Below, piece after piece: positions 1 to 19,664 of a stretch of 64,000 nucleotides of DNA. Positions within the stretch are counted from its first letter, which is position 1, and the number at the start of each line of letters is the position of its first letter. The notes under the pieces are model-generated. The model was not told where the DNA came from. It ran no database searches and saw nothing but the letters and a program-made list of their open reading frames with translations. A program made the translations under genes and the position numbers. Where the stretch lies: contig JAJDER010000038.1 of the NCBI GenBank assembly GCA_029259725.1, positions 5,784 through 69,783 of the forward strand, read 5' to 3'. The stretch is from Planctomycetota bacterium. GTDB taxonomy: Bacteria; Planctomycetota; B15-G4.

Positions 1-596
1 CGGAAGCGCAGGCGGAAGAGTTCCACGCCTTCCTCGGCGTCCCGCGCCTCGCGCACGCCGCGGAAGGTGGACAGGCGCAGGGCGTAGGTCTGCTCGCTGC
101 CGTCGCCGGTCAGGGTCATGGCCGAGGTGCGCTGTTCGGGGATGAACCGGTCGTGGGCGGCGCGCCACTCCACCGAGAGCGCATCGACGTTCCGGACGGA
201 CAGGCGCAGGACCAGGGTGTGGTGGATCTCGGGATCGACGGAGAAGTCGAAGGGGCCGCGCAGGAGCAGCGGGCCGGGGCCTGTCAGCACGAGGCGCCCG
301 TCGGCGACCTCCGCGGTGCAGGCGGCTCCCGGGCGCCACGGTCCGGCGGCGGTGTCTTCGTCGGCGAGGGGCTCGGGCGTCTCGAACGTCCAGGTGTGGG
401 CCAGGGGCGGCCGTTCCGCCGTCGCCACGGGCGCGGTCCAGGTCGGGCGGCGGGCCGCGACCTCGTAGCGCGTCGGGATGCCGTCGTCGCCGCAGGACCC
501 CAGCAGCAGCGCCCACGCCAGGGTCGCCCAGGCCAGGGTCAGCGGTGGCAGGCGGGGCGGGGCGGTGGGCTGCGATCGGGTGCGCTCGGACGGCAT
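1..596 (-). CDS. Putative lipoprotein, truncated by the window edge; not in the ORF track
   Basis: Manual translation from ATG at 596: MPSERTRSQPTAPPRLPPLTLAWATLAWALLLGSCGDDG. Hydrophobic stretch plus LLGSC lipobox, open to position 1. TATGAT -10 box lies 6 nt upstream of the ATG. Confidence 0.65.
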   Translation of the reverse strand, partial: MPSERTRSQPTAPPRLPPLTLAWATLAWALLLGSCGDDGIPTRYEVAARRPTWTAPVATAERPPLAHTWTFETPEPLADEDTAAGPWRPGAACTAEVADGRLVLTGPGPLLLRGPFDFSVDPEIHHTLVLRLSVRNVDALSVEWRAAHDRFIPEQRTSAMTLTGDGSEQTYALRLSTFRGVREARDAEEGVELFRLRF

Positions 597-694
597 CGCG
601 GGATCATAGCGGGGAGCGGGAGCCGGAGCCCCGGTCGACGAGGGGCCCGGGGCTTCGGCACAATGCGCCGCTTCCCCCGTGAGGAGTTCATCCC

Positions 695-1693
695 GTGAGT
701 CCTGCACCCGTCCGCGTCGCCGTCACCGGCGCCGCCGGCCAGATCGGCTACGCCCTGCTGCCCCGCATCGCCTCCGGCCAGATGTTCGGCCCGGACACGC
801 CGGTCATCCTCAACCTGATCGAGCTGCCCATCGAGGCCGCCATGTCGGCGCTCCAGGGTGTCGGCATGGAGCTGGAAGACGGCGCGTACCCGCTGCTGCA
901 CGACCTGGTCATGACCAGCGACCTCGCCGAGGGCTTCGGGGACTGCGACTGGGCGCTGCTGGTGGGCTCGAAGCCACGTGGGCCCGGGATGGAGCGCAAC
1001 GACCTGATCAAGGAGAACGGGCCGATCTTCGTCGGGCAGGGCAAGGCCATCAACGACCATGCGCACAAGTCCTGCCGTGTCGCCGTGGTGGGCAACCCGT
1101 GCAACACCAACGCGCTGATCGCGATGCACAACGCGCCCGACCTGCCGCGCGAGAACTTCAGCGCCATGACGCGCCTGGACGAGAACCGCGCCAAGGCCCA
1201 GCTGTCGTGCAAGGCCCAGGCCTTCCCGATCACCGCGGTGACCAACGTCACGATCTGGGGCAACCACTCGGCCACCCAGTTCCCCGACTTCGAGAACGCG
1301 CGCATCCAGGGCAAGCCCGGGCGCGAGGCGATCGACGACCCCGAGTGGCTCGAGAACGGCTTCATCAAGACGGTGCAGCAGCGCGGCGCGGCGATCATCA
1401 AGGCACGCGGCAGCAGCTCGGCCTTCTCGGCGGCGAGCGCGCTGATCGACCACGTGGTCTCGCTGACCACCAAGACCCCCGACGGCGACAGCCACTCGGT
1501 CGCCGTCTGCTCCGACGGCAGCTACGGCGTGCCCGAGGGCCTGATCTCCAGCTTCCCGATCCTCGCCGACGGCGCCGGCGGGTACTCGATCCGGCAGGGT
1601 CTGCCGATCTCGGACTTCGCGCGCGCCAAGATCGACGCGTCCGTCGCCGAGCTGCAGGCCGAACGTGACGTCATCAAGGAGCTCCTCGGCTGA
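695..1693 (+). CDS. mdh: Malate dehydrogenase (type 2 / cytosolic-like MDH)
   Basis: [15 protein letters not shown] nucleotide-binding motif, [37 protein letters not shown]. Confidence 0.96.
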
Positions 1694-4455
1694 TGTCGAA
1701 GGTCCTCGACGCGATCGCCCGCAGGGCGATGATCCAGACGGCGGTGATGATCGACATCGCCAACAACCGTCCGGACGCTCTCAAGACGGATCCCAAGGTC
1801 GGCGGTCACCCCGCCGCGTGCAGCAGTTCCGCGCACATCCTGACCGCGCTGCACTGCGAGGTGCGCAACGCCCAGGACTTCCTGTGCTGCAAGCCCCACG
1901 CGGCGCCGATCGACCACGTGATCCAGGGCATGCTCGGCCTGCACCGGCGCCAGCCCGGCGCGGACTGGTTCACGCCCGAGGAGACCGAGGCGGTCCTGCA
2001 CAACCTGCGCAAGTTCTCCGAGGACGGGGAGCCGGTGCTGCAGAGCTACCACGCGCGCACGGACCCGGATTCGTTCCACTGGTTCCCGTCGGGCAGCGTT
2101 GGCATCCCGCCGGTGGTCAGCGTCTACATGTCGCTCGCGTACCGCTACGCGAAGGACCACAGCATGGAGCTGCCCGCGGTCCCGGACGACATGCACTTCT
2201 GGAGCCTGATCGGCGACAGCGAGTTCCGTGAGGGCTCGCTCATGGAGGTCATGCCCGACGCCGCCGAGCGCGAGCTGGCCAACGTCACCTGGATCATCGA
2301 CTACAACCGGCAGAACCTCGACGGCGCGCGCATGCCGAACAAGAAGGGGCTGTCGGGGACCGACGCCGATCGCATCGAGGCCATGGCCCGCGCCAACGGC
2401 TGGGACGTGATCCAGGTGCGGCACGGGCGGCGGCGGCTGGAGACCTTCCGGCGCCCCGGCGGCAAGGCGCTGCGCGAGGTGCTCGAGGGCGGCTTCACGG
2501 ACTACGAGATCCAGATGCACCTACTCCATCGCAAGATGGACGAGATGCGCGGTGCGCTGCTCGCGGCGGACCCGGCCTGCAGCCAGATCCTCGGCACGCT
2601 CGACGACACCGAACTCGAGGCGGTCATCACCGACCTGGGCGGCCACGACACCGAGGTGTTGGTCGAGGCCCTGCTCAAGAGCAAGTACGACACGGACCGC
2701 CCGACGATCATCGTCGCGCACACCGTGAAGGGCTGGGGCATGGACATGTACGCCGCGCCCGGCAACCACTCCGACCTGCTCAAGCAGGAGGAGCTCGACC
2801 GCCTCATCGCCGAGGACGGGATGGACGCCGAACGGCCCTTCGAGAACTTCGCCGCGGACAGCGAGGAGGGGGTCTACCTCGCCAAGCAGGGTGCTGAGCT
2901 GCGCGGGGGTATCGAGGAACTGCTCGACTGGCGCAAGCAGAACCGCGAGTGGGTGCGCGATCGCGTGAACGCCGAGGGTGGCGTGCCCAGCAGTCTGGAC
3001 ATCGACACGCGGCTGTTCCCCAAGGCCCACACCCAGTGGATGTGGGGGCAGTTGGCGACCAAGCTCGTGCGCATCGGGACCTCGGCCGAGATGCGGCGCA
3101 CCGAGGGCGAGGGCGCACCCGACCTGACCGAGAAGGAGAAGCAGTGGGAGGCGCCCGCCGACTTCCTGCTGACCATGTCGCCGGACGTGGGCACGAGCAC
3201 GCAGCTCAACCCGGTCATGAACGCGCGCATCTACGGCTCCACGGACGAGAGCGCCGCCGAGGCCCACGAGGTCGAGGTCGTCACCGGCCAGACCAAGCGG
3301 CGCCCGTCGCTGCTGCCCACGGCGGAGCCCTGGACGCGGCACATCCGGTTCGAGATCGCCGAGGCCAACGCGATGTCCGCCGTCGGGGCCTTCGGGATGA
3401 TGGGGCACTACGCCGGCATCCCGTTCTTCCCGATCATGACGGTGTACGACTTCTTCATCAAAAGGGCGCTCGATCAGCTCTACTACAACCTCTACTGGGG
3501 CAGCGAGTTCGTGATCCTGGGCACGCCCTCGGGCGTGACACTTTCCAGCGAGGGCGCGCAGCACTCCTGGAAGAGCGACATCCAGATCCCGAACCTGATC
3601 ACCTGGGAACCGATCTTCGCGGTCGAGGTGGACTGGATCCTGTCCGAGTCGATCCGCCGTCACTTCGACGACGAGAACGAGGGTCGCAAGGGCATCCTGA
3701 TCCGCGCCGTCACCCGCGCCGTCGAGCAGAAGGAGCTGGTCACGCGGTTGCGTCGTCATCCGCGCTTCCGCACCAACCCGAACGATCTCGACTCGGCGCC
3801 GCTGGAAGACGAGCTGCTCTTCGAGCAGGCGCGCAAGGACTGTCTCTCCGGCGCCTACCACCTGGTGGATTTCCGCGGGCAGCCCGACTACGAGCCGGGC
3901 GTGAACGTGGTCAACCTCTTCTGCATGGGCGCGCTGGCCCCCGAAGCGCTCGAGGCCTCCGACAAGCTGCGCGAGCAGGGGCTCTACGCGAACGTGATCG
4001 CGGTCAGCTCGCCGGACCTGCTGCTCGGCAACCTCGCCGCCGAGAACGACTTCCACCACCTGCGTCGCGGCCTCGGCCTCGACGCCAACCTGCACCTCGC
4101 GCCCACGGGCGCCGTCGACAACCGCGCCGAGCTGGTCACCATGGCTGGCCGCCGCGTTCCGGTGGTGTCGGTGCACGACGGTGAGGTCGGGCTGCTCGAC
4201 AACATCGGCTCGGTGCTCGGTGTGCGCCAGGAGGCCCTCGGCGTGCGCAAGTTCAGCAAGTGTGGGCGGCCCGATCAGGTCTACGGCTACCAGGGCATCG
4301 ACGCGAAGGGCGTCATGGCGGCCTGCGCCAAGGTGTTGTCCGAGACCGCGGTGGAGACGGTCGAGGTGTCGCGGCGCGCGCTGGATGAGCTGGCTGGACG
4401 GCCGGCGCCGGCGGTGGCGGATTGGCGGGAGCTGGTGGACGTCGACGAGGGCTGA
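1693..4455 (+). CDS. aceE: Divergent homodimeric AceE-type 2-oxoacid (pyruvate-like) dehydrogenase E1, TPP-dependent
   Basis: KVGGHPAACSS, GSVGIPP, GDSEFREGS...DYNRQNLD TPP-binding region, IVAHTVKGWG, GIAE-like FEIAEANAMS, SSEGAQH. TGATG overlap with the mdh stop. Confidence 0.75.
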   Translation: MSKVLDAIARRAMIQTAVMIDIANNRPDALKTDPKVGGHPAACSSSAHILTALHCEVRNAQDFLCCKPHAAPIDHVIQGMLGLHRRQPGADWFTPEETEAVLHNLRKFSEDGEPVLQSYHARTDPDSFHWFPSGSVGIPPVVSVYMSLAYRYAKDHSMELPAVPDDMHFWSLIGDSEFREGSLMEVMPDAAERELANVTWIIDYNRQNLDGARMPNKKGLSGTDADRIEAMARANGWDVIQVRHGRRRLETFRRPGGKALREVLEGGFTDYEIQMHLLHRKMDEMRGALLAADPACSQILGTLDDTELEAVITDLGGHDTEVLVEALLKSKYDTDRPTIIVAHTVKGWGMDMYAAPGNHSDLLKQEELDRLIAEDGMDAERPFENFAADSEEGVYLAKQGAELRGGIEELLDWRKQNREWVRDRVNAEGGVPSSLDIDTRLFPKAHTQWMWGQLATKLVRIGTSAEMRRTEGEGAPDLTEKEKQWEAPADFLLTMSPDVGTSTQLNPVMNARIYGSTDESAAEAHEVEVVTGQTKRRPSLLPTAEPWTRHIRFEIAEANAMSAVGAFGMMGHYAGIPFFPIMTVYDFFIKRALDQLYYNLYWGSEFVILGTPSGVTLSSEGAQHSWKSDIQIPNLITWEPIFAVEVDWILSESIRRHFDDENEGRKGILIRAVTRAVEQKELVTRLRRHPRFRTNPNDLDSAPLEDELLFEQARKDCLSGAYHLVDFRGQPDYEPGVNVVNLFCMGALAPEALEASDKLREQGLYANVIAVSSPDLLLGNLAAENDFHHLRRGLGLDANLHLAPTGAVDNRAELVTMAGRRVPVVSVHDGEVGLLDNIGSVLGVRQEALGVRKFSKCGRPDQVYGYQGIDAKGVMAACAKVLSETAVETVEVSRRALDELAGRPAPAVADWRELVDVDEG

Positions 4456-4498
4456 GGTTCCAGTTCAGGCGTCCGCCGCTCCGCGAGACCTGGTGCAC

Positions 4499-4639
4499 GC
4501 GTCCGCCGCTCCGCGAGTGGGACCCTCCACCGTGCTCACGACCCTACTCGGGACGGGCTGCGCCCGTCCCTGCGAATGGTCGCTCCGCTCGGTGGTGCCT
4601 CCCACTCGCTGCGCGGCTGGGCGTTGAGGCCGGGGGCTC
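4499..4639. repeat. Palindromic intergenic element, copy 1 (REP/MITE-like)
   Basis: 141-bp direct repeat of 4700-4840 with one mismatch. Nested inverted repeats GCGAGTGGGA/TCCCACTCGC, CCACCG/CGGTGG, CGACC/GGTCG and GGGACGGGC-TGC-GCCCGTCCC. A partial 5' end also sits at 4462-4482. Confidence 0.9.
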
Positions 4640-4699
4640 AGCGGGGCGGCGGGTGGCTGGTGCTCGGGACCTCGTCGCCTTCGTGAGATCGGAGTTCAG

Positions 4700-4840
4700 G
4701 CGTCCGCCGCTCCGAGAGTGGGACCCTCCACCGTGCTCACGACCCTACTCGGGACGGGCTGCGCCCGTCCCTGCGAATGGTCGCTCCGCTCGGTGGTGCC
4801 TCCCACTCGCTGCGCGGCTGGGCGTTGAGGCCGGGGGCTC
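4700..4840. repeat. Palindromic intergenic element, copy 2
   Basis: Near-identical to 4499-4639 (offset 201 bp). Confidence 0.9.
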
Positions 4841-5025
4841 GGCGCGGGTGCGGGCGGCTGGGCTCGTTGGTACGGGTGGGCCTGTCGGACTCGGCGCTTC
4901 TCCGTGCCCATGGTCCGCGGCCGTAGGCCGGATCGGGGCGGGCGGCACCTGTCCCTGCGGCGGGCGGGGTCTCGCGAGGGGGTAGGATCGGGCTTGGCGA
5001 GTCGCGGGGGTGCAAGGAGGACGTC

Positions 5026-6321
5026 ATGTCGAGATGGATGCTGGTGAGTGTGGCTGCGTTGCTGCTGGCGATGCCGCGGGTCTCGGCGCAGGAGACGCTG
5101 CGGGTGCCGCAGGACTTCGGGACGATCCAGGCGGCGATCACGGCGGCCGAGGACGGGGACACGATCCTCGTGTCGAAGGGGACCTACGCGCCGTTTTCCA
5201 TGACGGCGATGAGCGACGTGGAGATCCGCGGCAAGGGCAAGCCGGTGATCGACGCGCTGGCGCCCGTGGACGGCGGCGGCATCGGCGCGCTGCTCACGGC
5301 CGTGAGCGGGATCACGCTCAAGGGGCTCGTGTTCGTCCCGGGCTCGGCGGGCGTGTCGGTCGACGGTGGCACCGACGTGCTGATCGAGAAGTGCACCTTC
5401 GAGGACGGCCCCGGCGACGGCGTGTTCGCCACGGACGGGTCGGGCCTGACGGTCAGCAAGTGCAGGTTCCTCGGCCTCGGCGGCCACGGCGTGCGCGTCA
5501 TCGAGACCGATACCGTCACCGTGAGTCGTTGCCGGTTCGAGGACGTCGGCGCCGCCGCGATGCGACTCTCCGGCGGCTTCACGGACGGCGCGACGTCGAC
5601 CAGCGACGGGTGCCTGGTCGAGAAGAACCGCATCAAGACGGCGGTCGGGGACGGCCTGTGGCTCAACGGGGACGACGCGATCGTCACGAAGAACCGCTTC
5701 CAGGACGTCAACGACGGGTTCCAGACCGACGGCGAGAGCACCAACTGCTGCTTCGAGAAGAACAGCGTCCTGCGCCCGGGCTTCGATGGGTTCTTCATCA
5801 ACGGGGACATGATCGAGCTGACGCGGAACAAGGTCACCGACGCCGACGACGACAGCTACGACATCCGCGCGCCGAGCACGCTCGTGAAGAACCGCTCGCT
5901 CCGCGGTGGAGGTGACGGCTTCAACGTCGGCGTCGCGGGCACCGGCACCACGGCCGAGCTCAACAAGGCCGTGCAGGCCGGCGACGACGGCTTCGAGTTC
6001 GATGCGAGCGACTGCGTGGTCACGAAGAACAAGGCCGTCAAGTCGTCCGACGACGGTTTCCGGGTCGACGCGAGCAACGGCGTCGTGACGGGCAACGTGT
6101 CCACCAAGGCCGGCAACGCCGGCTTCCGCGTCAACGGCACGCCCAACGAGCTGACCGACAACCGCGCGGTCGGCAGCGCGAACGACGGGTTCCTGCTCTT
6201 CACCTCGGGCAACACCCTGACCGGCAACACCGGCAAGGGGAGCGGCGGGTTCGATGTGAGCGACTTCGCCGGTGGGAACACCTACGTCGACAACAACTTC
6301 AAGACCGAGAACCTGCCGTAG
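5026..6321 (+). CDS. Secreted right-handed parallel beta-helix repeat protein (pectin lyase-like / NosD-like fold)
   Basis: Signal peptide; TLRVPQDFGTIQAAITAAEDGDTILVSKGTY start motif; many GF-x-[IV] ... N repeats. AAGGAGG SD before the ATG. Confidence 0.8.
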   Translation: MSRWMLVSVAALLLAMPRVSAQETLRVPQDFGTIQAAITAAEDGDTILVSKGTYAPFSMTAMSDVEIRGKGKPVIDALAPVDGGGIGALLTAVSGITLKGLVFVPGSAGVSVDGGTDVLIEKCTFEDGPGDGVFATDGSGLTVSKCRFLGLGGHGVRVIETDTVTVSRCRFEDVGAAAMRLSGGFTDGATSTSDGCLVEKNRIKTAVGDGLWLNGDDAIVTKNRFQDVNDGFQTDGESTNCCFEKNSVLRPGFDGFFINGDMIELTRNKVTDADDDSYDIRAPSTLVKNRSLRGGGDGFNVGVAGTGTTAELNKAVQAGDDGFEFDASDCVVTKNKAVKSSDDGFRVDASNGVVTGNVSTKAGNAGFRVNGTPNELTDNRAVGSANDGFLLFTSGNTLTGNTGKGSGGFDVSDFAGGNTYVDNNFKTENLP

Positions 6322-6357
6322 CGCCGGTAGGGCCCGGGTGGTGCCGGCTCTGGGTCC

Positions 6358-6480
6358 AGGTGTCCGCCGCCTGTCGCACGGGACCCTCCGCCGTGCTCAC
6401 GACCCTACTCGGGACGGGCTTTGCCCGTCCCTGCGAACGGTCGCTCGGCTCGGCGGCGCCTCCCGTGCGACTGGCGGCTC
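6358..6480. repeat. Palindromic intergenic element, copy 3 (diverged)
   Basis: Ungapped alignment to 4501-4620 with an identical core and compensatory changes in the outer stems. Confidence 0.85.
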
Positions 6481-6587
6481 CCGCCTCGACGACATCGGCC
6501 GCGAGGCGGGGGGAGAGAGGGGGGCGTGGGCATCCGGGCAGGGGCATGGGCGGGGAGGCGTATGCTCGGGGGGCGAAGGAGCTTGGG

Positions 6588-8378
6588 ATGCGCTTGGTGT
6601 GGCGACTTCTGGTTTCGGTGGGTGTCCTGCTGGGTGTGGCGGGGCTGATCGGGCTCTTGGCGTTCGGGGAGGACTCCGATGCGGGGGGCGCGCCGGGCGC
6701 GGTGACGGCGGTCGAGCGGCCTCCGGTCGTGTTCGTGAGCGGCACGGTGGCCTGGGAGCACGGCGAGCCCGTCTCCGGAGCCAGGCTCGAGTTCCAGCTG
6801 ACGTCTCCGGATGACCGCCACGCCGTTCCGCTGCCCGCCGTCGGTGCGGTGGAGACCGATGACGAGGGCGCGTTCGTCGTCGAGCTTCCCGCGGACACGA
6901 TGCTGTACGTGGGGATCACCTCGGACGCGTTGGAGCTGCGCGAGGACCGCCGGCTCAAGACGTTCACGTCGGCCACGCAGCGCGTCGAGTACGTGCTGCC
7001 GTCGGCCTGCGTCTTGCGGGTCGCGGGTCTGTTTCCGCTCGTGGACGGATGGCCCGACGCCAAGGTGATCCTGATGGCGAAGGGCGAGGAGACCCCGCTC
7101 GGCCGCATCCTCCTGAAGGACTGGCTCGGCCGGTTCAGCGGGATCGCGATGGGAACGGTGGTGGGTGTCGTGCTCGTCGTCGGGGATCGGGCACCGCAGG
7201 CGTTCGCGCTCGCGCAGGACGTCGAGATCGTGGAGCGCGACCAGAGGATCCGGGTCGAGCTCCCGGAATCACTCGCCTCTCGACTGTTCGGCGAGCAGGC
7301 CGGGGTCGTGGCGAACGAGGCGGCGGTCGAACCGTGGACGTTCAGCTGGTCGCTGGTGGACCCGTCGGGTGCCGCTGTGGACGGCAGGTCCCTGGTCAGC
7401 TCCGGAGTGCTGGCGGACTCCGGCTACGTCGATGTCCGGCTCGTCGCGGCGGATGGCACGGAGGCCTCGCAGGACCAGCATCTGAGCTACTGGAACGCGG
7501 ACCTCGAGGGTGAGGTGACCGTGTCCCTCGCCGCACCGGTGGAGGTCGAACTCCGGATCGCCGGGCGGACGTTCCGCGAGGTCGGCGTCATGCCGGGTGA
7601 GTGGATCCGATTCATCCTGCACGAGCCCTTCGAGGCGGACCATCCCGTCACCGTCATCTACGAACCCGAGTCCGTCCCGGTCCTGATCATGGCCTTCGGC
7701 GAGGACGGTTCGCGGTATCTGAACGTGTCCGAGTCCGGTTCGCTGGAGGGACGCTACGCCGATGGGCGGTATGCCTACCACGCGGCGAGCGGCGATCCGG
7801 GCGTCTCGACGACGGGGACGTTCGTGGTGGATGCGTCCGCGGGCCCGGTGAGGGTGCCCATCGTCTTCTCGGAGTCGGCCTCGCTCTCAGGTCACCTGTT
7901 CCCCGCTCCGCCGGAGGGCGAGACCGCCACCGTCCAGGTCATGCGGCGGGGGGCGGTGGGCTTCATGCCGGTCCTTCAGGGTGAGGCGTCCGGCCTGGAT
8001 GGTCTCTTCGAGATCGCGGGGTTGGGGACGGGCGAACACGTCGTCACCGTCGCGTCCCGGCGGAAGGACCAGGTTCGCGTGGCCCACGTGGGCGTGGATC
8101 TGAAGGCCGGCTCCAACCGGGTCGACGTCGACAGGCCCTCCGATGCCGCGAGCGAGAAGCTGACGCTCGTGCTGGAGGGAGCCGAGGCCGCCCATGTCCG
8201 CGCGTTCGATGCCGAGGGCCGCCAGGTGACGTTCCTGATGTCCGAGGGCAAGCCGGTCACGCTCATCACGCCGTCGCCGGCCGTGTCCTACGTGGCGGTG
8301 ACGGCGGGGGAGATGTGGCGGACGGGGGAGATGACGCACGGCGAGGTGACCGGGGCGAAGCTGGTCCTCTCGTTCTGA
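6588..8378 (+). CDS. Membrane-anchored protein with carboxypeptidase-regulatory-like beta-sandwich domains
   Basis: AAGGAG SD then MRLVWRLLVSVGVLLGVAGLIGLLAF TM; VSGTV..GEPVSGA..TDDEGAF and LSG..DGLFEIAGL..GEH motifs. Confidence 0.55.
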   Translation: MRLVWRLLVSVGVLLGVAGLIGLLAFGEDSDAGGAPGAVTAVERPPVVFVSGTVAWEHGEPVSGARLEFQLTSPDDRHAVPLPAVGAVETDDEGAFVVELPADTMLYVGITSDALELREDRRLKTFTSATQRVEYVLPSACVLRVAGLFPLVDGWPDAKVILMAKGEETPLGRILLKDWLGRFSGIAMGTVVGVVLVVGDRAPQAFALAQDVEIVERDQRIRVELPESLASRLFGEQAGVVANEAAVEPWTFSWSLVDPSGAAVDGRSLVSSGVLADSGYVDVRLVAADGTEASQDQHLSYWNADLEGEVTVSLAAPVEVELRIAGRTFREVGVMPGEWIRFILHEPFEADHPVTVIYEPESVPVLIMAFGEDGSRYLNVSESGSLEGRYADGRYAYHAASGDPGVSTTGTFVVDASAGPVRVPIVFSESASLSGHLFPAPPEGETATVQVMRRGAVGFMPVLQGEASGLDGLFEIAGLGTGEHVVTVASRRKDQVRVAHVGVDLKAGSNRVDVDRPSDAASEKLTLVLEGAEAAHVRAFDAEGRQVTFLMSEGKPVTLITPSPAVSYVAVTAGEMWRTGEMTHGEVTGAKLVLSF

Positions 8379-8498
8379 GGCACCCTGTCGGGCATCACCG
8401 ACGCGGCAGGCATGCCCTGCGGAGAGCGGTGGCGTGCGGCGAGTCACGCCGACGCTGCCTGCTATCATCGGGCGCCCTCCCGCCTCGCCTGGCCCCGC

Positions 8499-11690
<3,192 letters not shown>

Positions 11691-11694
11691 GCTG

Positions 11695-13194
11695 ATGGGA
11701 ACCCACACACAGGACGACGACGTGACCTCGGCCCTCGATCGCCGCGCGTTCCTCCAGGCCGGGGCCTCGGTGGCGGGACTCTCGCTCCTGTCCGGGCTCG
11801 ACGCGGCCGGGCTGTTCCTCGGACGCGGGGCCGTCCCGGCGGGTCCGCTACCGCCGCCGCCGTCGCTGGGGAAGGCCAAGGCCTGCATCTTCCTGTTCAT
11901 GTTCGGCGGCCCGTCGCAGATGGACCTGTTCGACTACAAGCCGGAGCTGGAGCGCCTCGACGGCAAGACCGTCGAGCACGAATGGCGACGTCACCGCATG
12001 CGCACCGGCACGATCCTCGGGTCGCGGCGCACCTTCGCCCGTCACGGGGAGACGGGGCAGTGGTGTTCGGATGCCCTGCCGCACCTGGCCGGGCACATGG
12101 ACAAGCTGGCCGTGATCAAGAGCCTGCACACCGACTCGTTCGCGCACGGATCCGCCGTGCTGCAGATGAACAGCGGGCAGGTGTTGCAGGGGCATCCCTG
12201 CGTGGGCTCGTGGGCCACCTTCGGCATGGGCTCGGGCAACGCCGACCTGCCGTCGTTCGTGGTCATGCAGGACCCGCGCGGCGGGCCCATCTCCGGTCCG
12301 GCCAACTGGAGCAGCGGCTACATGCCGGCCGAGTACCAGGGGACGCTGTTCCGTTCGGCCGGCGATCCGGTGCTGGACCTCTCGGCCTCGCCCCGTGCGC
12401 GGTCTCGGGCCGGCATGACGCGCGGGATGGAACGGGCCCAGCTCGATCTGATCGGCGCCCTGAACGCTGAGCACGCGCGTCTTCGCCCCGACTCCGGGGA
12501 CCTCTCCGCTCGCGCGGCCAGCTACGAGCTCGCCTACCGGATGCAGGCCGCGGCTCCCGACGCGCTCGACCTCTCCCAGGAGGATGCGCGCACGCAAGCG
12601 CTGTACGCCCTCGGCGACCCGAAGCCGGACCACAAGCTCGCCGTCGGGCCCGCGGTGTTCGGGCGTCAGTGCCTGATCGCCCGGCGCCTCGTGGAGCGCG
12701 GCGTGCGCTTCGTGCAGATCTACCACGGCGGCGGTCACCAGCAGCAGACCTGGGATGCGCACCAGGGCGTCGAGGAGAACCTCACGATCCACGCGCCGGA
12801 GATCGACCGTCCGATCGCCGGGCTGCTGACCGACCTCGCGCAGCGTGGACTGCTCGAGGAGACCCTCGTGGTCTGGGGCGGGGAGTTCGGCCGGCAGCCG
12901 GTTGGCCAGCTGTCGGGCGCGGACCAGGTCGCCAACGTCCAGGGGCGCGATCACAACCCCAAGGCATTGACGATGTGGCTGGCCGGCGCCGGCATCCGCC
13001 CGGGCAGCTACGGCGAGACCGACGAGCTGGGATTCGAGGCCGCCGTGAACGCCCATCATCTGCGCGACTTCCACGCGACGGTGCTGCATGCGCTGGGGCT
13101 CGACCACCGGGTGCTGACCTACCGTCACGCCGGTCTCGACCGGAAGCTCACCGGGGTCATCGAGGCCCATCCGATCGCCGGCGTCCTCGCCTGA
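11695..13194 (+). CDS. DUF1501 domain protein (Tat-exported; typical partner of PSD1/PSD3 genes)
   Basis: DRRAFLQ Tat motif, CIFLFMFGGPSQMDLFDYKP, CLIARRLVERGVRFVQ, WDAH, ETLVVWGGEFGR, GRDHNP. Confidence 0.93.
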   Translation: MGTHTQDDDVTSALDRRAFLQAGASVAGLSLLSGLDAAGLFLGRGAVPAGPLPPPPSLGKAKACIFLFMFGGPSQMDLFDYKPELERLDGKTVEHEWRRHRMRTGTILGSRRTFARHGETGQWCSDALPHLAGHMDKLAVIKSLHTDSFAHGSAVLQMNSGQVLQGHPCVGSWATFGMGSGNADLPSFVVMQDPRGGPISGPANWSSGYMPAEYQGTLFRSAGDPVLDLSASPRARSRAGMTRGMERAQLDLIGALNAEHARLRPDSGDLSARAASYELAYRMQAAAPDALDLSQEDARTQALYALGDPKPDHKLAVGPAVFGRQCLIARRLVERGVRFVQIYHGGGHQQQTWDAHQGVEENLTIHAPEIDRPIAGLLTDLAQRGLLEETLVVWGGEFGRQPVGQLSGADQVANVQGRDHNPKALTMWLAGAGIRPGSYGETDELGFEAAVNAHHLRDFHATVLHALGLDHRVLTYRHAGLDRKLTGVIEAHPIAGVLA

Positions 13195-13385
13195 CAGGGG
13201 AGACCCCTGCAACACGCTCCTGATCGCCGGGAGCCGGTTGATCGGCTTTGGTCACGACGGGAACGAGGGACCCCCGGGCCCGGAGGATGCGGCTGAGGAG
13301 TACAATCCCCCCTCAAGGAGGCGGGCACCGCGCCACGGGACTCGAGACCCGGGGGTCAGGCACCGCCGCTGCGGTTGGGGAACCG

Positions 13386-14834
13386 ATGCTCGAAACACTG
13401 TTGTCCGTCCTGTGCCTGGCGCTCGGCGCCACGGCCGGAGTCCTGTGGGCCCGCGCCCGCGCCGCCGAGCGAGAGGAGCGTCTGCGGGCGGACGCCGCCG
13501 CGCGCGAGGAATCCCTGCGCGGTGAACTCGACCAGGCTCGGGCGGCCGCAGGCGAGGCCCGCGAGGCCGTCGCCCGCGCCGTGGCCGAACGCGAGACGCT
13601 CAAGGCCGCCGCGCGCGACGAGGCCGAGCAGCGCAAGCAGATGGAGCAGGCCTTCGCCGCCCACGCCGCCAAGGCCGGCGATGACCTGATGAAGCGTTTC
13701 CTCGACGTGGCCGGCACGCGCTTCGCCTCCAGCGAGAAGTCGGCGGCCGAGGCGCTCGAGCAGCGCAAGCTCGCCATCGAGCAGCTGATGAAGCCGCTGA
13801 CCGAGAAGCTGGGCAAGCTCGACGTGCTCACCCGCGACATCGAAGGCAAGCGCGAGAAGGCCTACGGGCAACTCGGGGAGCAGCTGACCAACCTGATGGG
13901 CGCGGTGGGCGACGTCCACCAGTCGAGCCGGTCGCTCTCCGACGCGCTGCGCGGCAGCAGCCAGGCGCGCGGCGACTGGGGCGAGATGGCGCTGCGCAAC
14001 ATCGTCGAGATGGCGGGCATGACCCGCAACGTCGACTTCAACGAACAGAGCCAGGACAGCGCGGGGCGGAGGCCGGACATGGTCGTCCGGCTGCCCGGGG
14101 GCGATCTCATCCCGGTCGACGCGAAGACGCTCTGGAAGGACTTCGAGGCGGCCTGCTCGACCAGCGATCCGGGCGCGCGCGAGGCGTCGCTGGCCAGCCA
14201 TGTCGCCAGCGTCCGGGAGGTCGTGCGCGCCCTGAAGAAGAAGGACTACGCGTCGGCGGTGGAGGGCCGCGTCGACTTCACGGTCATGTTCGTCCCCAGC
14301 GAGGCCGTGGTGGCCGCGGCGTTCACGCACGACCCGAGGATCTTCGAGTGGGCCCTCGCCCAGTCGGTGCTGATCGCCACGCCGGCCACGCTCATGGCGC
14401 TGCTGCGCACGATCTACCTGTTCTGGCGCGAGGACGACCTGGCCGAGGACAGCCGCGCGGTGTGGAAGCTCGCGACCGAGTATCACAAGCGCACGGTGAC
14501 GCTCTTCGGGCACCTCAAGAAGGTGGGCGAGGGACTGGCGCGCACCCAGGACAGCTACAACGCCGTGGTGGGCAGCTTCAGCCGTCGGGTCCTGCCCGCC
14601 GGCCGCGAGCTGGAGCAGAAGGTCTCGCCGACGGATTCCTCCAAGCGACTCCCGGCGCTCGAGCTGCTCGACCAGCCCATCCGCGAGGCGTCGGGCTTCG
14701 GCGTGCCGGCGCTCCCGTCCGCCGCGGACATGCTGGAGGCCGACGTCGACATCCGGGTCGCCGAGGCGGGGCCGGGCTTCCGCTCGCGTATCGGCCCCGT
14801 GGTCGAGGACGACGAGTCGCCGCGGCCGGACTGA
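13386..14834 (+). CDS. rmuC: DNA recombination protein RmuC
   Basis: N-terminal TM, coiled coil, RGDWGEMAL, RPDMVVRLPG..IPVDAK, VDFTVMFVPSE, ATPATLMALL. Confidence 0.92.
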   Translation: MLETLLSVLCLALGATAGVLWARARAAEREERLRADAAAREESLRGELDQARAAAGEAREAVARAVAERETLKAAARDEAEQRKQMEQAFAAHAAKAGDDLMKRFLDVAGTRFASSEKSAAEALEQRKLAIEQLMKPLTEKLGKLDVLTRDIEGKREKAYGQLGEQLTNLMGAVGDVHQSSRSLSDALRGSSQARGDWGEMALRNIVEMAGMTRNVDFNEQSQDSAGRRPDMVVRLPGGDLIPVDAKTLWKDFEAACSTSDPGAREASLASHVASVREVVRALKKKDYASAVEGRVDFTVMFVPSEAVVAAAFTHDPRIFEWALAQSVLIATPATLMALLRTIYLFWREDDLAEDSRAVWKLATEYHKRTVTLFGHLKKVGEGLARTQDSYNAVVGSFSRRVLPAGRELEQKVSPTDSSKRLPALELLDQPIREASGFGVPALPSAADMLEADVDIRVAEAGPGFRSRIGPVVEDDESPRPD

Positions 14835-14877
14835 GCCCGCCGCAACACCCTCGCGGCCGACCTGTTACAACCGCCCC

Positions 14878-15720
14878 ATGAGCGACGGGCAGATCCTGGA
14901 GACCGACGGTCTCTACAAATTCTTCGGCGCCGCCTCGGCCAAGGTTCCGGTCGTGACGGACGTGTCGATCTCCGTGAAGGCGGGGCGCTTCGTGACCGTG
15001 ATGGGCCCCTCGGGCTCCGGCAAGTCGACCTTGCTGCACATGGTCTCGGGGCTCGAGCCGCCCTCGGGAGGCACGGTCCACCTCGACGGGCACGATCTCT
15101 ACGCGATCAGCGAGAAGCAACGCACGCTGCTGCGGCGCGACCTGGTCGGCTTCGTGTTCCAGTTCTACAACCTGATCCCGAACCTGACGGCCGAGGAGAA
15201 CATCCGGCTGCCGCTCATGATCGGTGCCCAGGCGCGGCCAGTGGCGGCGAGCGTGTCCAGGGCGGCGGGCGCTGGGGGCGCAGCGGACCGAGACGGGGGC
15301 TGCGCCGCGACGGGTGACTCGGATGGCGCCGACCGCGACGGCCTCGACTTCGACCGGCTGGTCGAGCTCTTCTCGCTGCGGGATCACCTCGAGCAGTACC
15401 CGCACCAGCTGAGTGGTGGCGAGATGCAGCGCGTCTCCATCGCGCGCGCGCTGATCAGCAAGCCGGCCGTGATCATGGCCGACGAACCCACGGGCAACAT
15501 CTCGACCAGTGCCGGCGAGGAGGTCATGCGCCTCTTCCGGCGCTGCTGCGACGAGTTCGGGCAGACGATCCTGCTGGTCACGCACAACCCCCGTGACGCC
15601 GCCTTCAGCGACGAGGTGCACTTCCTCAAGGACGGCGAGCTGCACGGGGACGTCGCCCTGCGCGACGAAGGCGTGACCGCCGAGGCCATCAACGCCTCCT
15701 TGAAGACGCTGGGCATCTGA
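14878..15720 (+). CDS. ABC transporter ATP-binding protein (LolD/MacB-type)
   Basis: Walker A GPSGSGKST, GFVFQFYNLIP, LSGGEMQRVSIARAL, DEPTGN, VTHN. Low-complexity insert before the signature motif. Confidence 0.93.
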   Translation: MSDGQILETDGLYKFFGAASAKVPVVTDVSISVKAGRFVTVMGPSGSGKSTLLHMVSGLEPPSGGTVHLDGHDLYAISEKQRTLLRRDLVGFVFQFYNLIPNLTAEENIRLPLMIGAQARPVAASVSRAAGAGGAADRDGGCAATGDSDGADRDGLDFDRLVELFSLRDHLEQYPHQLSGGEMQRVSIARALISKPAVIMADEPTGNISTSAGEEVMRLFRRCCDEFGQTILLVTHNPRDAAFSDEVHFLKDGELHGDVALRDEGVTAEAINASLKTLGI

Positions 15721-15783
15721 CGGCCGACCGCATCTGACCGCGGTCGACCGCGGACCGGGCGCGGCTGTCGGCCGCGTTGGAGA

Positions 15784-18462
15784 GTGATCTTGAAGCTGAT
15801 CCTGCTGCTCGCCTGGCGACACCTCGCCTTCCGGCCGGGGAAGACGCTGGCCTCGGTGCTGGGCATCGCGGTGGGCATCGCGACGGTGGTCTCGGTCATG
15901 ACCATCGACCACAACACGCTGCTGACCCAGTACAACCGTCGCGTCCCGAGTGATCCCGACACCGACCTGCTGCTCCAGCCGCACATGAACTTCGGCGCCG
16001 AGCTCGGCGGACCGTCGGTGCTGGACGTCGAGGCCGTGCGCCGCGATCTGCTCGATCAGCCGTTCCTCGACGGCGTCGCCGCCCACGTGAGCGGCAAGTA
16101 CGCGCTGCAGGTGAACGGCAAGACCGTCGCCGGCGTCGAGCTGATGGGGGTCGAGCAGGAGGCGGCGAGCTTCCACGGTGCCTACCTGGTCGATGCGGGC
16201 GAGGACCTGGACTACGACTCCGAAGCGCCCCAGCTCCTGATGACGTCCGCGCTGGCCGAAGAGCGCGGTCTCGTCGTGGGCGATCTGGTCGTGCTCACGC
16301 AGCCGCCTCGGCGACGAGCGCCGGTCACGCGTTGCGTGGGCGGCGAGTACGTCATCATCGAAGAGCGCGTGCCGAGCGGCGCGCGCGCCGGTGGGATGGG
16401 AGCCGGCGGGATGGGCGGCCGTGCGGCCGAACCGCCCCCGCCGCAACACCAGATGCAGGTCGTGGGGCTGCTCGCCGCCACCCAGCTCGGCTACAGCAAG
16501 AACCGCGTGATCACCACCTACCGCGGTGCGCTCGACATGCTCGGGCCCACCACGGTGCCCCTCTTCTGGGCCGACTTCGACCGCTCGCAGAAGGACTTCC
16601 TGGGCGTCGAGGCCGAGCTGCGCGACCGCTTCGTGGTGATCGAGCCCAAGCGCGCCCTGGCCGGCGAAGCGCCGGAGGAGATGGCCTTCCGCAGCGGCGT
16701 GCGCTTCTGCGGGTTCCTGGCCTTGTTCCTCGGGCTCTACATCATCTTCAACACCATGTCGATGTCGCTCGTCGAGCGCGTGCGGTACATCGGGTTGATG
16801 CGCGCGCTGGGCGTGACGCGCGGCCGCCTGCTGCTGATCTTCATGGCCGAGGGTGGGCTCTTGTCGATCGTCGGGGCCGGGGCCTCGCTGCTGCTGGCCG
16901 ACGGGATCGTCGGCGCGATGGCGTCCCGCGGCATCTCGACGCTCGGCGTGGGCAAGGGCATCACCGTGACCGAGTGGCCCTGGGGCGAGATCCTCGGTGT
17001 GCTCGTGCTGGGCGTGTGCTTCTGCCTGCTCGGCGTGCTCTACCCGTTCCTGCGCGCGGCGCGCCTGTCGGTCATCGATGCGCTGCGTCGAGGCGTGATC
17101 GAACTCTCCGCGGACCCCTTCACCGGCGCGCGCCGCACCGTGCTGCTGGGCATGCTCGCGCTGGTGCCCATCGCCTGGTTCGTGGGCACGCCGCCGGGCA
17201 CGGCCCTCCCCGAGCCGATGTTCGAGGCGATCCTGCAGGCGCTCGGCCTCGTCGGCGGGACCTTCGCGCTGCTGCTGTTGTTCCCCAAGGTGCTGCCGCG
17301 ACTGGCGGCGGCGATCACCTCGCCGTTCAAGGGGCCCGAGGCCAGGCTCGCGCGCTCGACCATGTCCAGCTCGCGCCACCGCGTGTTCGGTTCGGTGTCC
17401 GGGCTGATGCTCGTGTTCAGCGCCGTGTTCCTGATCGTCTCCGTGCTGGAGTCGCTCAAGTCCGAGACGCGGCAGTTCGGCGAGACGGCCCTGGCTCAAC
17501 GGCTGTTCATCAAGGTCTCGCCCGACGGCGCCGAGCGCATGGGCGAGCTCCGGCGCGCGCTTCCCGAGCTGGGCACGCTGGTGCCGCTCAACGTCGAGGT
17601 CTACAGCCCGTTCCTGGTGCGTGGCGTGGACAAGCGCATCCTCGGCATGGGCTCGCTCGCCGGCGACGAGAACCGACGCCTGCTCTTCGAGACGCGCCCG
17701 TCGATCGTCGTCTCGACGCGCTGCTCGGACGACTTCGGCTATGCGACCGGTGATTGGGTCACGCTCAACACCGCCGCCGAGGGCCCGGTGGCCTTCCGCG
17801 TGCTCGCGGTCACCGACGAGTACGGGTTCGCGCCCGACGACCGGGTCTTCGGCGTGATCTCGGCGGAGAACATGCGCCGCTACTGGTGCCTCGACGCCGA
17901 GGGGCTGGGCAACTATTTCTCGGCCTTCACGCCGAAGCTGTCGGGCGTCGACCTGACCGCGCTCGAGGTCCGCATCGCCGAGGTGCTCGGCGAGGACGCG
18001 GTGCTCGACATCCGGCGCGGCGAGGACATCGCGGAGGACTATGTGGGCGACCTCCAGCGGAGCTTCGCGATCTTCTACGTGATCCTGCTGCTGACCGTCG
18101 TGCTCGCGGCCGTGGGGATCCTGAACGCCATGGTCATCGCGGTCATGGAGCGGCGTCGCGAGATCGGTCTGCTGCGCTCGGTCGGGCTCACGGCCGGGCA
18201 GGTGGCCGGGATGCTGCTGCTCGAGTCGGGGACCTTCGGCGTGCTCGGTGGACTGCTCGGTGTCGCGCTCGGCGTGCCCCTGGCCGTGCTGACCACCGAC
18301 GCGCTCACGCAGATGAGCCATCTCGAGCTGAGCTTCCAGCTGTCGCCGCGCACGATGGGTGCGGTGCTCGGCGGCGCGGTCGTCGTGGCCGTCCTGGCGG
18401 TGATCCTGCCGGTGCTGCGGGCGAACCGCCTGAGGTTGTCCGAGGTCATGCGCTACGAGTGA
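15784..18462 (+). CDS. ABC transporter permease (FtsX/MacB-like, duplicated)
   Basis: LGIAVGIATVVSV, IFNTMSMSLVERVRYIGLMRALG, NAMVIAVMERRREIGLLRSVG; two periplasmic core + FtsX units. Confidence 0.9.
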   Translation: MILKLILLLAWRHLAFRPGKTLASVLGIAVGIATVVSVMTIDHNTLLTQYNRRVPSDPDTDLLLQPHMNFGAELGGPSVLDVEAVRRDLLDQPFLDGVAAHVSGKYALQVNGKTVAGVELMGVEQEAASFHGAYLVDAGEDLDYDSEAPQLLMTSALAEERGLVVGDLVVLTQPPRRRAPVTRCVGGEYVIIEERVPSGARAGGMGAGGMGGRAAEPPPPQHQMQVVGLLAATQLGYSKNRVITTYRGALDMLGPTTVPLFWADFDRSQKDFLGVEAELRDRFVVIEPKRALAGEAPEEMAFRSGVRFCGFLALFLGLYIIFNTMSMSLVERVRYIGLMRALGVTRGRLLLIFMAEGGLLSIVGAGASLLLADGIVGAMASRGISTLGVGKGITVTEWPWGEILGVLVLGVCFCLLGVLYPFLRAARLSVIDALRRGVIELSADPFTGARRTVLLGMLALVPIAWFVGTPPGTALPEPMFEAILQALGLVGGTFALLLLFPKVLPRLAAAITSPFKGPEARLARSTMSSSRHRVFGSVSGLMLVFSAVFLIVSVLESLKSETRQFGETALAQRLFIKVSPDGAERMGELRRALPELGTLVPLNVEVYSPFLVRGVDKRILGMGSLAGDENRRLLFETRPSIVVSTRCSDDFGYATGDWVTLNTAAEGPVAFRVLAVTDEYGFAPDDRVFGVISAENMRRYWCLDAEGLGNYFSAFTPKLSGVDLTALEVRIAEVLGEDAVLDIRRGEDIAEDYVGDLQRSFAIFYVILLLTVVLAAVGILNAMVIAVMERRREIGLLRSVGLTAGQVAGMLLLESGTFGVLGGLLGVALGVPLAVLTTDALTQMSHLELSFQLSPRTMGAVLGGAVVVAVLAVILPVLRANRLRLSEVMRYE

Positions 18463-18776
18463 CCGCGCGTGCGAGGCGACTCCGCCACGGGGCCCGCGGT
18501 GTGGGTGCTCTGTCCCATGATCGGAACGCCGTCCCGGACGAGCAGCAGTCATCTCGCGCGGACCACTCGCCGAAGGCCGCCTCCTCGCCACGGCTGGGGG
18601 CCTTGCGTGACCGTCGGAAGGTGACAGGCTAGGTGCACGCGTCACCGTCCGGTGGCGTCGGCCCGGCGCTCCTGCGGCAGGGGAGAGCCCATCGGGAACC
18701 GGGTCGACAACTCCTCCCCTCATCGACCCGACGAGGTGCCGGGGCCTCCCGACGCGAGGCTCTGGTCCACACCGCC

Positions 18777-19646
18777 ATGCATCCCACTCCTCGCGCGGAG
18801 TGCCGGCCCCGACCCGGTGCTCTCCTCGCGGCGCTCCTGGGCGTCGTCTGTCTCGGTCCAGCCGCCCTGGCCGGGCCCCCTCGCCCTCCGGACGAGGTCT
18901 GCGCCGTCGCGTCGCCGTCGCCGGCCGGACCCGTCGACGAGGCGCGGGGCCCGAAGGCCAGCGGCGTTTCGACGGAGGCGTCTGCCCTGCTCGACGCCTG
19001 CCGTGCGGCGTGCCGCGCGCTCGAGACCCTGCACGTCCGGGTCGAGTACCAGCGGCTCGATGCCGGCGCCACCGAACCCTACGCCCCGCGCCTCGCCCGC
19101 GTGCGCTTGCAGCGCCAGCTCGATGCCGCGCCGCGCCTGTCCGTGATCGCCGACGTGGAACCACTCACCCCCGAGGAGTTCGGCTGGGCCTACCATCTGG
19201 TTGCCGACGGGGTCGCCGCGGCGGCTCTCGACAGCCGCGGACCGCGACTGCGTCAGGCTCCGATCGATGCCGCCTCCGCGCTGTTCGAACCGGTGGACGG
19301 CCTGCTCCCGACCCTGCTCCTCGCCGGAAGGTTGCATGCTGGCCACGAGCCGGGGGCCCCCGCGCCGAAGTCGGTGCGCAGGCTGGGGCTGTCCGTCGTG
19401 CACGGCGTGCGCTGTGACGTGCTCGAGGTCCTCGGCGCCGAGGGCGTCCTGACGCGCCTTCACGTCGGCAGCAGCGACCAGCTTCCGCGCCGGATCGAGA
19501 GCCTCGGCCCCGACGGCGTGGAACACATCACCGTGCTGTGGGACCTGCGTCCCGGGGTGCCGCTGAGCGATCGCGACTTCGCCCTGCCCCTGCCGGCCGG
19601 CGTGGTGATCGAGCCGCCCGGTTCCCCGACGGCATCCGGGAACTGA
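18777..19646 (+). CDS. Exported LolA-like / lipoprotein-sorting-fold protein
   Basis: Signal-like N-terminus; C-terminal GVRCDVLEV...LPRRIE...LRPGVPLSDRDFALPLPAG resembles the LolA/DUF2092 ending. Start codon uncertain. Confidence 0.45.
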   Translation: MHPTPRAECRPRPGALLAALLGVVCLGPAALAGPPRPPDEVCAVASPSPAGPVDEARGPKASGVSTEASALLDACRAACRALETLHVRVEYQRLDAGATEPYAPRLARVRLQRQLDAAPRLSVIADVEPLTPEEFGWAYHLVADGVAAAALDSRGPRLRQAPIDAASALFEPVDGLLPTLLLAGRLHAGHEPGAPAPKSVRRLGLSVVHGVRCDVLEVLGAEGVLTRLHVGSSDQLPRRIESLGPDGVEHITVLWDLRPGVPLSDRDFALPLPAGVVIEPPGSPTASGN

Positions 19647-19664
19647 CGCGGGGTTCCCGCCGCC

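Follow-up and report, generated by a model that had tools for sequence, protein, structure and literature searches.

We analysed a 64,000-nt stretch of DNA (the window, C127:5784-69783; C-numbers denote contigs of the source genome) and focused on a long hairpin element whose copies lie on both sides of a gene for a secreted beta-helix protein. The source is a draft genome of 4.79 Mb in 195 contigs (70.9% GC, 84% complete) from a probable planctomycete; for one of its proteins, the closest homologues that carry a name belong to metagenome-assembled genomes of Planctomycetota. The features of the locus are listed by window position.

1693-4455, plus strand: upstream gene for a 920-amino-acid (aa) thiamine-diphosphate enzyme, transketolase- or pyruvate dehydrogenase E1-like (open reading frame (ORF) list; Pfam Transketolase_N and PDH_E1_M)
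4453-4487, plus strand: partial duplicate of the left flank and arm (TGAGGTTCCAGTTCAGGCGTCCGCCGCTCCGCGAG), beginning at the stop codon of the upstream gene (repeat search)
4493-4660, plus strand: tandem unit 1, with its hairpin at 4499-4625 (repeat search, alignment and folding)
4534-4588, plus strand: conserved core of unit 1, counted between the closing G-C pairs, with the apical stem-loop at 4550-4570
4694-4861, plus strand: tandem unit 2, 201 nt after unit 1, with its hairpin at 4700-4826 and core at 4735-4789
about 4862-5010, plus strand: decayed third tandem unit (repeat search, 3-mismatch pattern match and alignment), with a stretch like P3, the apical helix of the core, at 4933-4959 (TCGGGGCGGGCGGCACCTGTCCCTGCG)
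5026-6321, plus strand: bracketed gene for a secreted right-handed beta-helix protein of 431 aa (ORF list, protein and domain searches)
6354-6521, plus strand: copy 3, with its hairpin at 6358-6486 and core at 6395-6449
6588-8378, plus strand: downstream gene for a 596-aa protein with a weak CarboxypepD_reg-like match (domain and homologue searches)

The TGA stop codon of the upstream gene (4453-4455) lies directly 5' of the hairpin array, and copy 3 starts 36 nt past a TAG stop codon (6319-6321). A first-pass annotation of this DNA had placed all three copies just 3' of plus-strand stop codons. This holds for copies 1 and 3, but copy 2 is the second tandem unit and has no real stop codon ahead of it. 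Units 1 and 2 are 95-98% identical, while copy 3, 1660 nt further along and with arms of the same type, shows about 85% identity across the hairpin.

Copies 1 and 3 aligned without gaps across the hairpin. The outer stem GCGAGTGGGA/TCCCACTCGC of copy 1 is replaced by TCGCACGGGA/TCCCGTGCGA in copy 3 (four compensatory pairs), and the second stem CCACCG/CGGTGG by CCGCCG/CGGCGG (one compensatory pair). The apical stem is constant, and only its loop differs (TGC to TTT). The alignment thus reproduced the three hairpins, five compensatory pairs and loop change first described for this locus. For each window copy, folding predicts a single long hairpin with -79 to -89 kcal/mol per 131 nt; z-scores are -5.7 to -9.7, and none of 200 shuffles was as stable.

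Besides the three copies, the window also contains the decayed unit and the partial left arm. Partial left halves were likewise found ahead of full copies on contigs C82 and C41. The decayed unit was given no score by the covariance model described below and ends about 16 nt ahead of the beta-helix start codon.

Copies, distribution and anatomy of the family

A genome-wide blastn search, one of the checks suggested with the first description, found about 19 copies in the source genome, so the family is larger than three. A relaxed motif search added more diverged copies. We built a covariance model, R1, on 19 copies. It matched 26 sense-strand sites on about 20 contigs of the source genome with 60-96 bits, while the opposite strand of these loci reached only 27-36 bits. 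In the window, unit 1 scored 88.3 bits (C127:10300-10390, window 4517-4607) and copy 3 scored 81.3 bits. The hairpins are therefore confirmed as true copies of an uncatalogued repeat family with at least 26 copies in the genome. Of the roughly 28 full or partial copies, 13 are found in the terminal 1 kb of a contig, where about 8% would be expected, and contigs of relatives break off inside the element. The true copy number is thus probably higher.

The R1 model found no copies in 40 relatives from the same family and order, nor in 400 other genomes covering 288 genera of the phylum, with 10-105 candidates scored per genome. A strict pattern scan of 185,579 species genomes gave no match. A looser scan of the same genomes gave three single matches in unrelated taxa, all of which the covariance model rejected. 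The pattern scan of a viral contig collection was also negative. Copies were found on metagenome contigs from sample Ga0315338 and from two other assemblies, in relatives whose identity to the source genome is 82-92% for nucleotides or 93% for protein. A search of the window and 11 loci against Rfam release 15 at permissive thresholds returned only sub-threshold matches to microRNA precursors, that is, to generic long hairpins. We consider these to be noise; the element thus matched no described family.

The element measures about 110-215 nt overall and is built in layers: a core, a pair of arms and, in two subfamilies, tails beyond the arms. The core is 55 nt long, strand-asymmetric, conserved in all copies and bounded by closing G-C pairs. 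Moving inward from these pairs, it consists of a 3x4 internal loop (UCA/CUCC), helix P2, an irregular helix and the apical helix P3. P2 occurs as CGACC/GGUCG, GGACC/GGUCU or GGGCC/GGCCC. The irregular helix carries a conserved bulged U and a U·C mismatch. P3 (GGGACG.../...CGUCCC) is 8-11 bp long with a 3-nt loop.

Covariation was computed on an alignment of 27 distinct cores. Pairing was seen in 88.6% of cells, compared with 32-49% when the partners were slid, and reached 98-99% in P2 and P3. Nine core pairs change on both sides, and none of 500 shuffles reached the observed covariation score. The compensatory signal first seen between two window copies thus persists when more copies are aligned. 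One pair inside the apparent internal loop (23-54) is U-A in 17 copies, C-G in 10 and never unpaired. G·U pairs occupy 13 core cells, representing about four to five independent events, and are found on the sense strand only; A·C cells, the equivalent of G·U on the antisense strand, number zero.

The arms contain about 20-30 paired bases. Directly beyond the closing G-C pairs, subfamilies show no more than background identity to one another. We distinguished four subfamilies.

Subfamily A: nine copies
Subfamily B: six copies
Subfamily C: the three window copies
Subfamily D: about nine copies, most with their own arms

The arms of D-type copies are perfect stems of 21-28 bp without a second copy in the genome. 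In A- and B-type copies, conserved leaders and tails extend beyond the arms, and the repeat is then about 215 nt long. Arms pair far better with their own partner (mean duplex energy -52.7 kcal/mol) than with arms of another subfamily (-24.0 ± 5.7), and the own partner was the best arm match in 17 of 18 copies. Arm pairs are 97% Watson-Crick, with G·U at 13 of 453 pairs (2.9%).

Gene-end placement, turnover and neighbouring features

We determined where the copies lie relative to genes. All 19 copies in first position follow a stop codon in sense orientation. The distance from the stop codon to the beginning of the model match is 15-85 nt, and to the hairpin foot it is shorter; in some copies the stop codon is inside the element's own leader. 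The three loci from relatives that were read directly, L046, L047 and L048, are likewise sense after a stop codon. The upstream genes are unrelated housekeeping genes, including ileS, aconitase, tatC, trkH, pepA (leucyl aminopeptidase) and the thiamine-diphosphate enzyme gene of the window. Another two copies stand second in a tandem array. At six loci, convergent pairs lie 270-400 nt apart, and each copy is sense to its own convergent gene where this could be checked. Both orientations thus occur within 400 bp on six contigs, which rules out an orientation set by the replication strand. Since each closely spaced copy follows its adjacent gene, the orientation rule tracks transcription. The spacers of the convergent pairs share element tails only and have no common interior, so these pairs are not one composite transposon.

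Among the 160-nt stretches after the stop codons of 1597 gene ends, the elements make up five of the 10 most stable and seven of the 20 most stable. None of the copies is followed by a T-run, and a consensus terminator scan found no terminator at the copies. Without a U-tract, a canonical intrinsic (Rho-independent) terminator is ruled out. A SECIS, PYLIS or read-through signal is also ruled out, as the copies follow both TGA and TAG behind ordinary complete genes. U-tract terminators were not enriched in 20 kb of the window (four found, 3.9 expected).

Within window positions 1-20000, matches to sigma-70-type promoters and U-tract terminators were both at or below shuffle expectation. The host organism probably uses signals other than these. 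Plain GC-rich hairpins of 13-15 bp without a U-tract were seen directly after some stop codons (C84:14485-14540, and on C121 downstream of 23566).

Comparison with relatives, including the empty sites called for when the element was first described, showed that copies are present or absent at the C81, C84 and C55 sites. L046 (B-type) and L048 (C-type), arms included, sit behind genes whose source-genome orthologues on C81 and C84 have no copy. The C84 site carries a plain 15-bp hairpin where the relative has the element. Whole hairpins have thus been copied to non-orthologous sites, with local tandem and inverted duplication in addition, and the presence of copies differs between close relatives.

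Other copies are shared. Those on C55 and C73 are orthologous in relatives, the C55 relative at 93% protein identity, and orthologous copies show compensated changes: GUCUGC/GCAGAC to GCCUGC/GCAGG, and in P3 GGGACGG/CCGUCCC to GGGACAGGCC/GGCCUGUCCC. Between C55 and its relative the arm is about 85% identical while the adjoining leader is barely alignable, which indicates that the arms are constrained. An outgroup (71% protein identity) has only a 16-nt spacer at the C55 site, compared with about 330 nt in the source genome.

No orthologous context was recovered for the window locus itself. The beta-helix protein has no close homologue in a collection of 5.8 billion proteins (best match 36% identity over 70% of the protein); its gene may be a recent acquisition or fast-evolving. 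The sole relative of the 596-aa downstream gene lies on a contig that begins exactly at the start of that gene, which fits an assembly break at a repeat upstream.

Two other repeats were noticed in the source genome. The first is a dispersed non-coding repeat of about 140-150 nt (GCGCGAAGTGCTCTGCAGGCGAGGGCGTC...CGTCCTCGACGCGGATGAC), several copies of which lie at contig ends. The second, of about 140-185 nt and lower GC, begins with GCCTAGCCTGGACTTCTCACCAGC; one of its copies immediately follows a stop codon and is part of a highly stable structure at that gene end. Including the hairpin family, these are the second and third repeat families.

Second repeat family: C5:1-152, C6:18967-19108, C16:13999-14141, C24:1-139, C28:1-100
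Third repeat family: C11:18862-19046, C11:58961-59102, C24:14047-14227, C27:14047-14128, C190 near 32748

Relation to known repeats and competing explanations

The first-pass annotation proposed either a REP/MITE-like element, as a single-stranded DNA hairpin substrate, or a structured 3' RNA element, and saw no cognate transposase in the window. Our searches agree on the last point. No RAYT/IS200 gene (Y1_Tnp, PF01797) was matched in the 84%-complete genome, although the same PF01797 search was positive in six of 14 control genomes. Reverse transcriptase (PF00078) and TnpB (PF07282) were absent from the assembly. No transposase-like ORF was seen flanked by two copies, though no search was aimed at DDE transposases. 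In the target-site duplication test, the element ends were fuzzy, and empty and filled orthologous sites were too diverged to align over the junction. An automated search for a conserved motif at the hairpin foot gave too much noise in sequence of 71% GC. The proposal of a dispersed, non-autonomous palindromic repeat stands. As to its DNA and RNA alternatives, the evidence points both ways: the sense orientation of 19 of 19 first-position copies and the sense-only core G·U pairs favour an RNA or transcription-linked role, and the near-exclusive Watson-Crick pairing of the arms speaks for their upkeep as DNA.

We compared the element with known palindromic repeats. REPs measure 20-40 bp, with stems of 8-9 bp and a GTAG or CGTC tag that is left unpaired (PMC3733652), and REP/BIME and REPINs are mobilised by RAYT (Y1 HUH) transposases (Bertels and Rainey 2011, PMC3116915; Di Nocera et al. 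2013, PMC3733652). Like REP/BIME, the copies are GC-rich palindromes that lie mostly 3' of coding regions and are plausibly transcribed, form tandem and inverted-pair clusters, and are lineage-restricted and variable between related genomes. The element departs from REPs in its length (110-215 nt), in its asymmetric 55-nt core with arms specific to the copy, in following the orientation of the gene and in the lack of a detected RAYT gene. It has no terminal GTAG or CGTC, and CGTC occurs only within the paired apical stem (GGGACG/CGTCCC).

ERIC/IRU elements of Enterobacteriaceae are imperfect palindromes of about 127 bp, comparable to bacterial MITEs such as Correia/NEMIS (PMC3184786, PMC2229807). 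The element shares with these its size and its long imperfect palindromes in intergenic regions, transcribed in their case and probably so here; some copies overlap or supply stop codons. ERIC and MITE elements fold in mRNA and can alter its stability. There is no sequence relationship to them, and neither a target-site duplication nor a parent insertion sequence was found. ERIC and MITE copies share their whole sequence including the inverted ends, whereas here only the centre is common to the subfamilies; the arms differ, so that shared terminal inverted repeats, as expected of a MITE, are lacking. ERIC elements are also found in both orientations, unlike this family.

The placement resembles that of the 'Tuberculosis Rho-independent terminator' (TRIT) motif of Mycobacterium (Gardner et al. 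2011, PMC3152330). Both are genus-restricted conserved hairpins of a high-GC bacterium poor in U-tract terminators, hold a narrow position relative to stop codons and account for a large share of the most stable gene ends. For TRIT, an unknown binding factor was inferred by its authors (PMC3152330). TRIT has 147 copies; it is a shorter and largely symmetric (bidirectional) motif that extends into the end of the coding sequence (PMC3152330), while the element described here is asymmetric and orientation-specific, has about 26 assembled copies and variable arms, and shows no sequence similarity to it. The element is thus a TRIT-like gene-end hairpin by functional analogy only and not by family membership.

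Integron attC sites, too, are structured imperfect palindromes directly after genes and in sense orientation. They are recognised through extrahelical bases on one folded strand. The element has no R'/R'' core sites, cassette array or nearby integrase, and its flanking genes are housekeeping genes. Overall, it is a member of none of the REP, ERIC, MITE and TRIT families. It is best read as a palindromic intergenic element, restricted to a genus or lineage, of the same general kind as REP/BIME, ERIC and MITE and placed like TRIT.

For this family, with its covarying fold, its position at gene ends and its turnover, the explanation that we favour, and hold to be reasonably probable, is that of a lineage-restricted repeat that comes and goes and places a very stable hairpin on mRNA 3' ends, with an asymmetric core read by a protein and arms maintained as DNA. 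The element would be transcribed as the 3' end of the upstream mRNA, where the transcript is predicted to fold into a rod of -80 to -117 kcal/mol. This rod may mark the mRNA 3' end or protect it, by blocking 3' exonucleases or by serving as a terminator that relies on an assisting factor and has no U-tract. The irregular conserved core would be the binding site of a lineage-specific protein. New copies would arise by a hairpin-specific copy mechanism, and one arm would be templated from the other at the DNA level, which would keep the pairing perfectly Watson-Crick.

Several observations sit uneasily with this explanation. Two copies between co-directional genes are antisense (C41:14082 and C85:5485, both second members of convergent pairs), and a degenerate copy on C57 lies between divergent gene starts. 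A hairpin that was simply stable would work either way round, so the orientation rule needs an explanation specific to the core. Gene ends in this genome are generally unstructured, with a mean z of about 0 and z below -3 in 4%, compared with 1% inside genes. Judged as a structured RNA, the core shows its nine covarying pairs and sense-only G·U, while the arms show few G·U pairs and equal stability on both strands: the fold energy does not differ between strands, the sense strand being the more stable in 10 of 23 copies. An A·C mismatch is even present on the sense strand of some A-type copies. The arms look kept as DNA and not selected as RNA. Finally, neither an enzyme that could mobilise the element nor a target-site duplication or a terminal cleavage motif came to light.

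That the element is purely selfish DNA is an alternative that we regard as possible though unlikely. Here the conserved core, folded in single-stranded DNA, would be the substrate of a hairpin-specific enzyme encoded elsewhere (such as a HUH or tyrosine transposase), the element would have no RNA function, and the position at gene ends would result from target choice and purifying selection. Hairpin-binding transposases and integrases such as IS608 TnpA, RAYTs and IntI acting on attC read irregular folded hairpins. The rod-like core with its conserved bulge and mismatch resembles such substrates, and the nearly all Watson-Crick arms, the variable presence among relatives, the partial copies adjoining full ones and the crowding of copies at contig ends, in relatives as well, all agree with selfish DNA. 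However, Y1/RAYT, TnpB and reverse transcriptase genes were not found in the assembly. Moreover, strand-specific insertion into single-stranded DNA does not predict an orientation that follows the gene in every first-position copy, and the core G·U pairs are confined to the sense strand.

A rather unlikely variant treats the core as the mobile module. The 55-nt core would home to, or flip within, the tip of a palindromic arm pair by means of a hairpin-specific enzyme, and the arms would be built or perfected locally by DNA templating. This would match the loss of identity between subfamilies right outside the closing G-C pairs and the mosaics of arms and cores: C-type arms hold a CUAC/GAAC core in the window and a UGUU/AAAG core in L048, and B-type arms occur with three core variants. 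On C90, an identical left arm (24 of 24 positions) and start of the right arm (9 of 9) enclose cores of opposite orientation. D-type arms, which have no second copy in the genome, also fit. Against this, empty long hairpins are rare, with 20 perfect stems of at least 14 bp genome-wide and none longer than 19 bp. Subfamilies A, B and C move with their arms, as seen from the B- and C-type arms of L046 and L048 at non-orthologous sites. Ectopic gene conversion limited to the core, together with arm recombination, could yield the same mosaics and flip. The D-type copies are old (relatives at 91-93% identity), and their arms may have drifted with compensation. With only those 20 stems available, insertion into pre-existing long terminator hairpins is unsupported; insertion may instead have occurred into ordinary short hairpins, followed by growth of the stem.

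Two rearranged loci were observed in this connection. At C90:22230-22689, the last ~20 nt of the leucyl-aminopeptidase gene and the arms recur about 320 nt downstream, in a duplicate whose core is inverted, and the contig stops 9 nt after the second core. At C82:60-134, a B-type copy is adjoined by 65 nt that are identical to the tail and 3' arm of another copy, the A-type one at C82:365-418. The break falls exactly at the boundary between arm and core; the stretch is either a genuine truncated copy or a chimera produced in assembly close to where the contig begins.

We find it improbable that the element is an immobile functional RNA encoded by the host, such as a factor-dependent terminator or processing site, whose copies arose by local duplication and vertical descent. 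An RNA of this kind would agree with the conserved core, the strictly sense position behind stop codons and the plain hairpin at the orthologous C84 place, and it has a parallel in TRIT (PMC3152330). It is contradicted by near-identical hairpins, arms included, at non-orthologous loci of the source genome and its relatives, by copies that come and go between close relatives, and by the short outgroup spacer at the C55 site. The 400 other genomes of the phylum yielded no copies either. Lastly, hairpins in sense orientation after genes and a bracketed beta-helix gene without close homologue might suggest attC sites with that gene as one cassette, but this is effectively refuted by anatomy and gene context: attC sites have conserved ends (RYYYAAC/GTTRRRY) and a variable centre, the element is reversed in having a conserved centre and variable ends, and its copies are spread over about 20 contigs behind housekeeping genes (ileS, acnA, tatC) with no array beside an integrase.

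More generally, the family has an architecture unlike the REP or MITE models, in that an asymmetric core sits within private Watson-Crick arms, in sense orientation, with arm/core mosaics and one core flip. If the core were indeed the mobile unit, this would imply a copying mechanism directed to hairpin tips that has no known enzyme. In practical terms, the element breaks metagenome assemblies of this group. For the organism itself, an uncultured high-GC lineage where U-tract terminators were not enriched in the 20 kb scanned, the family is a candidate for setting or protecting some of the mRNA 3' ends.

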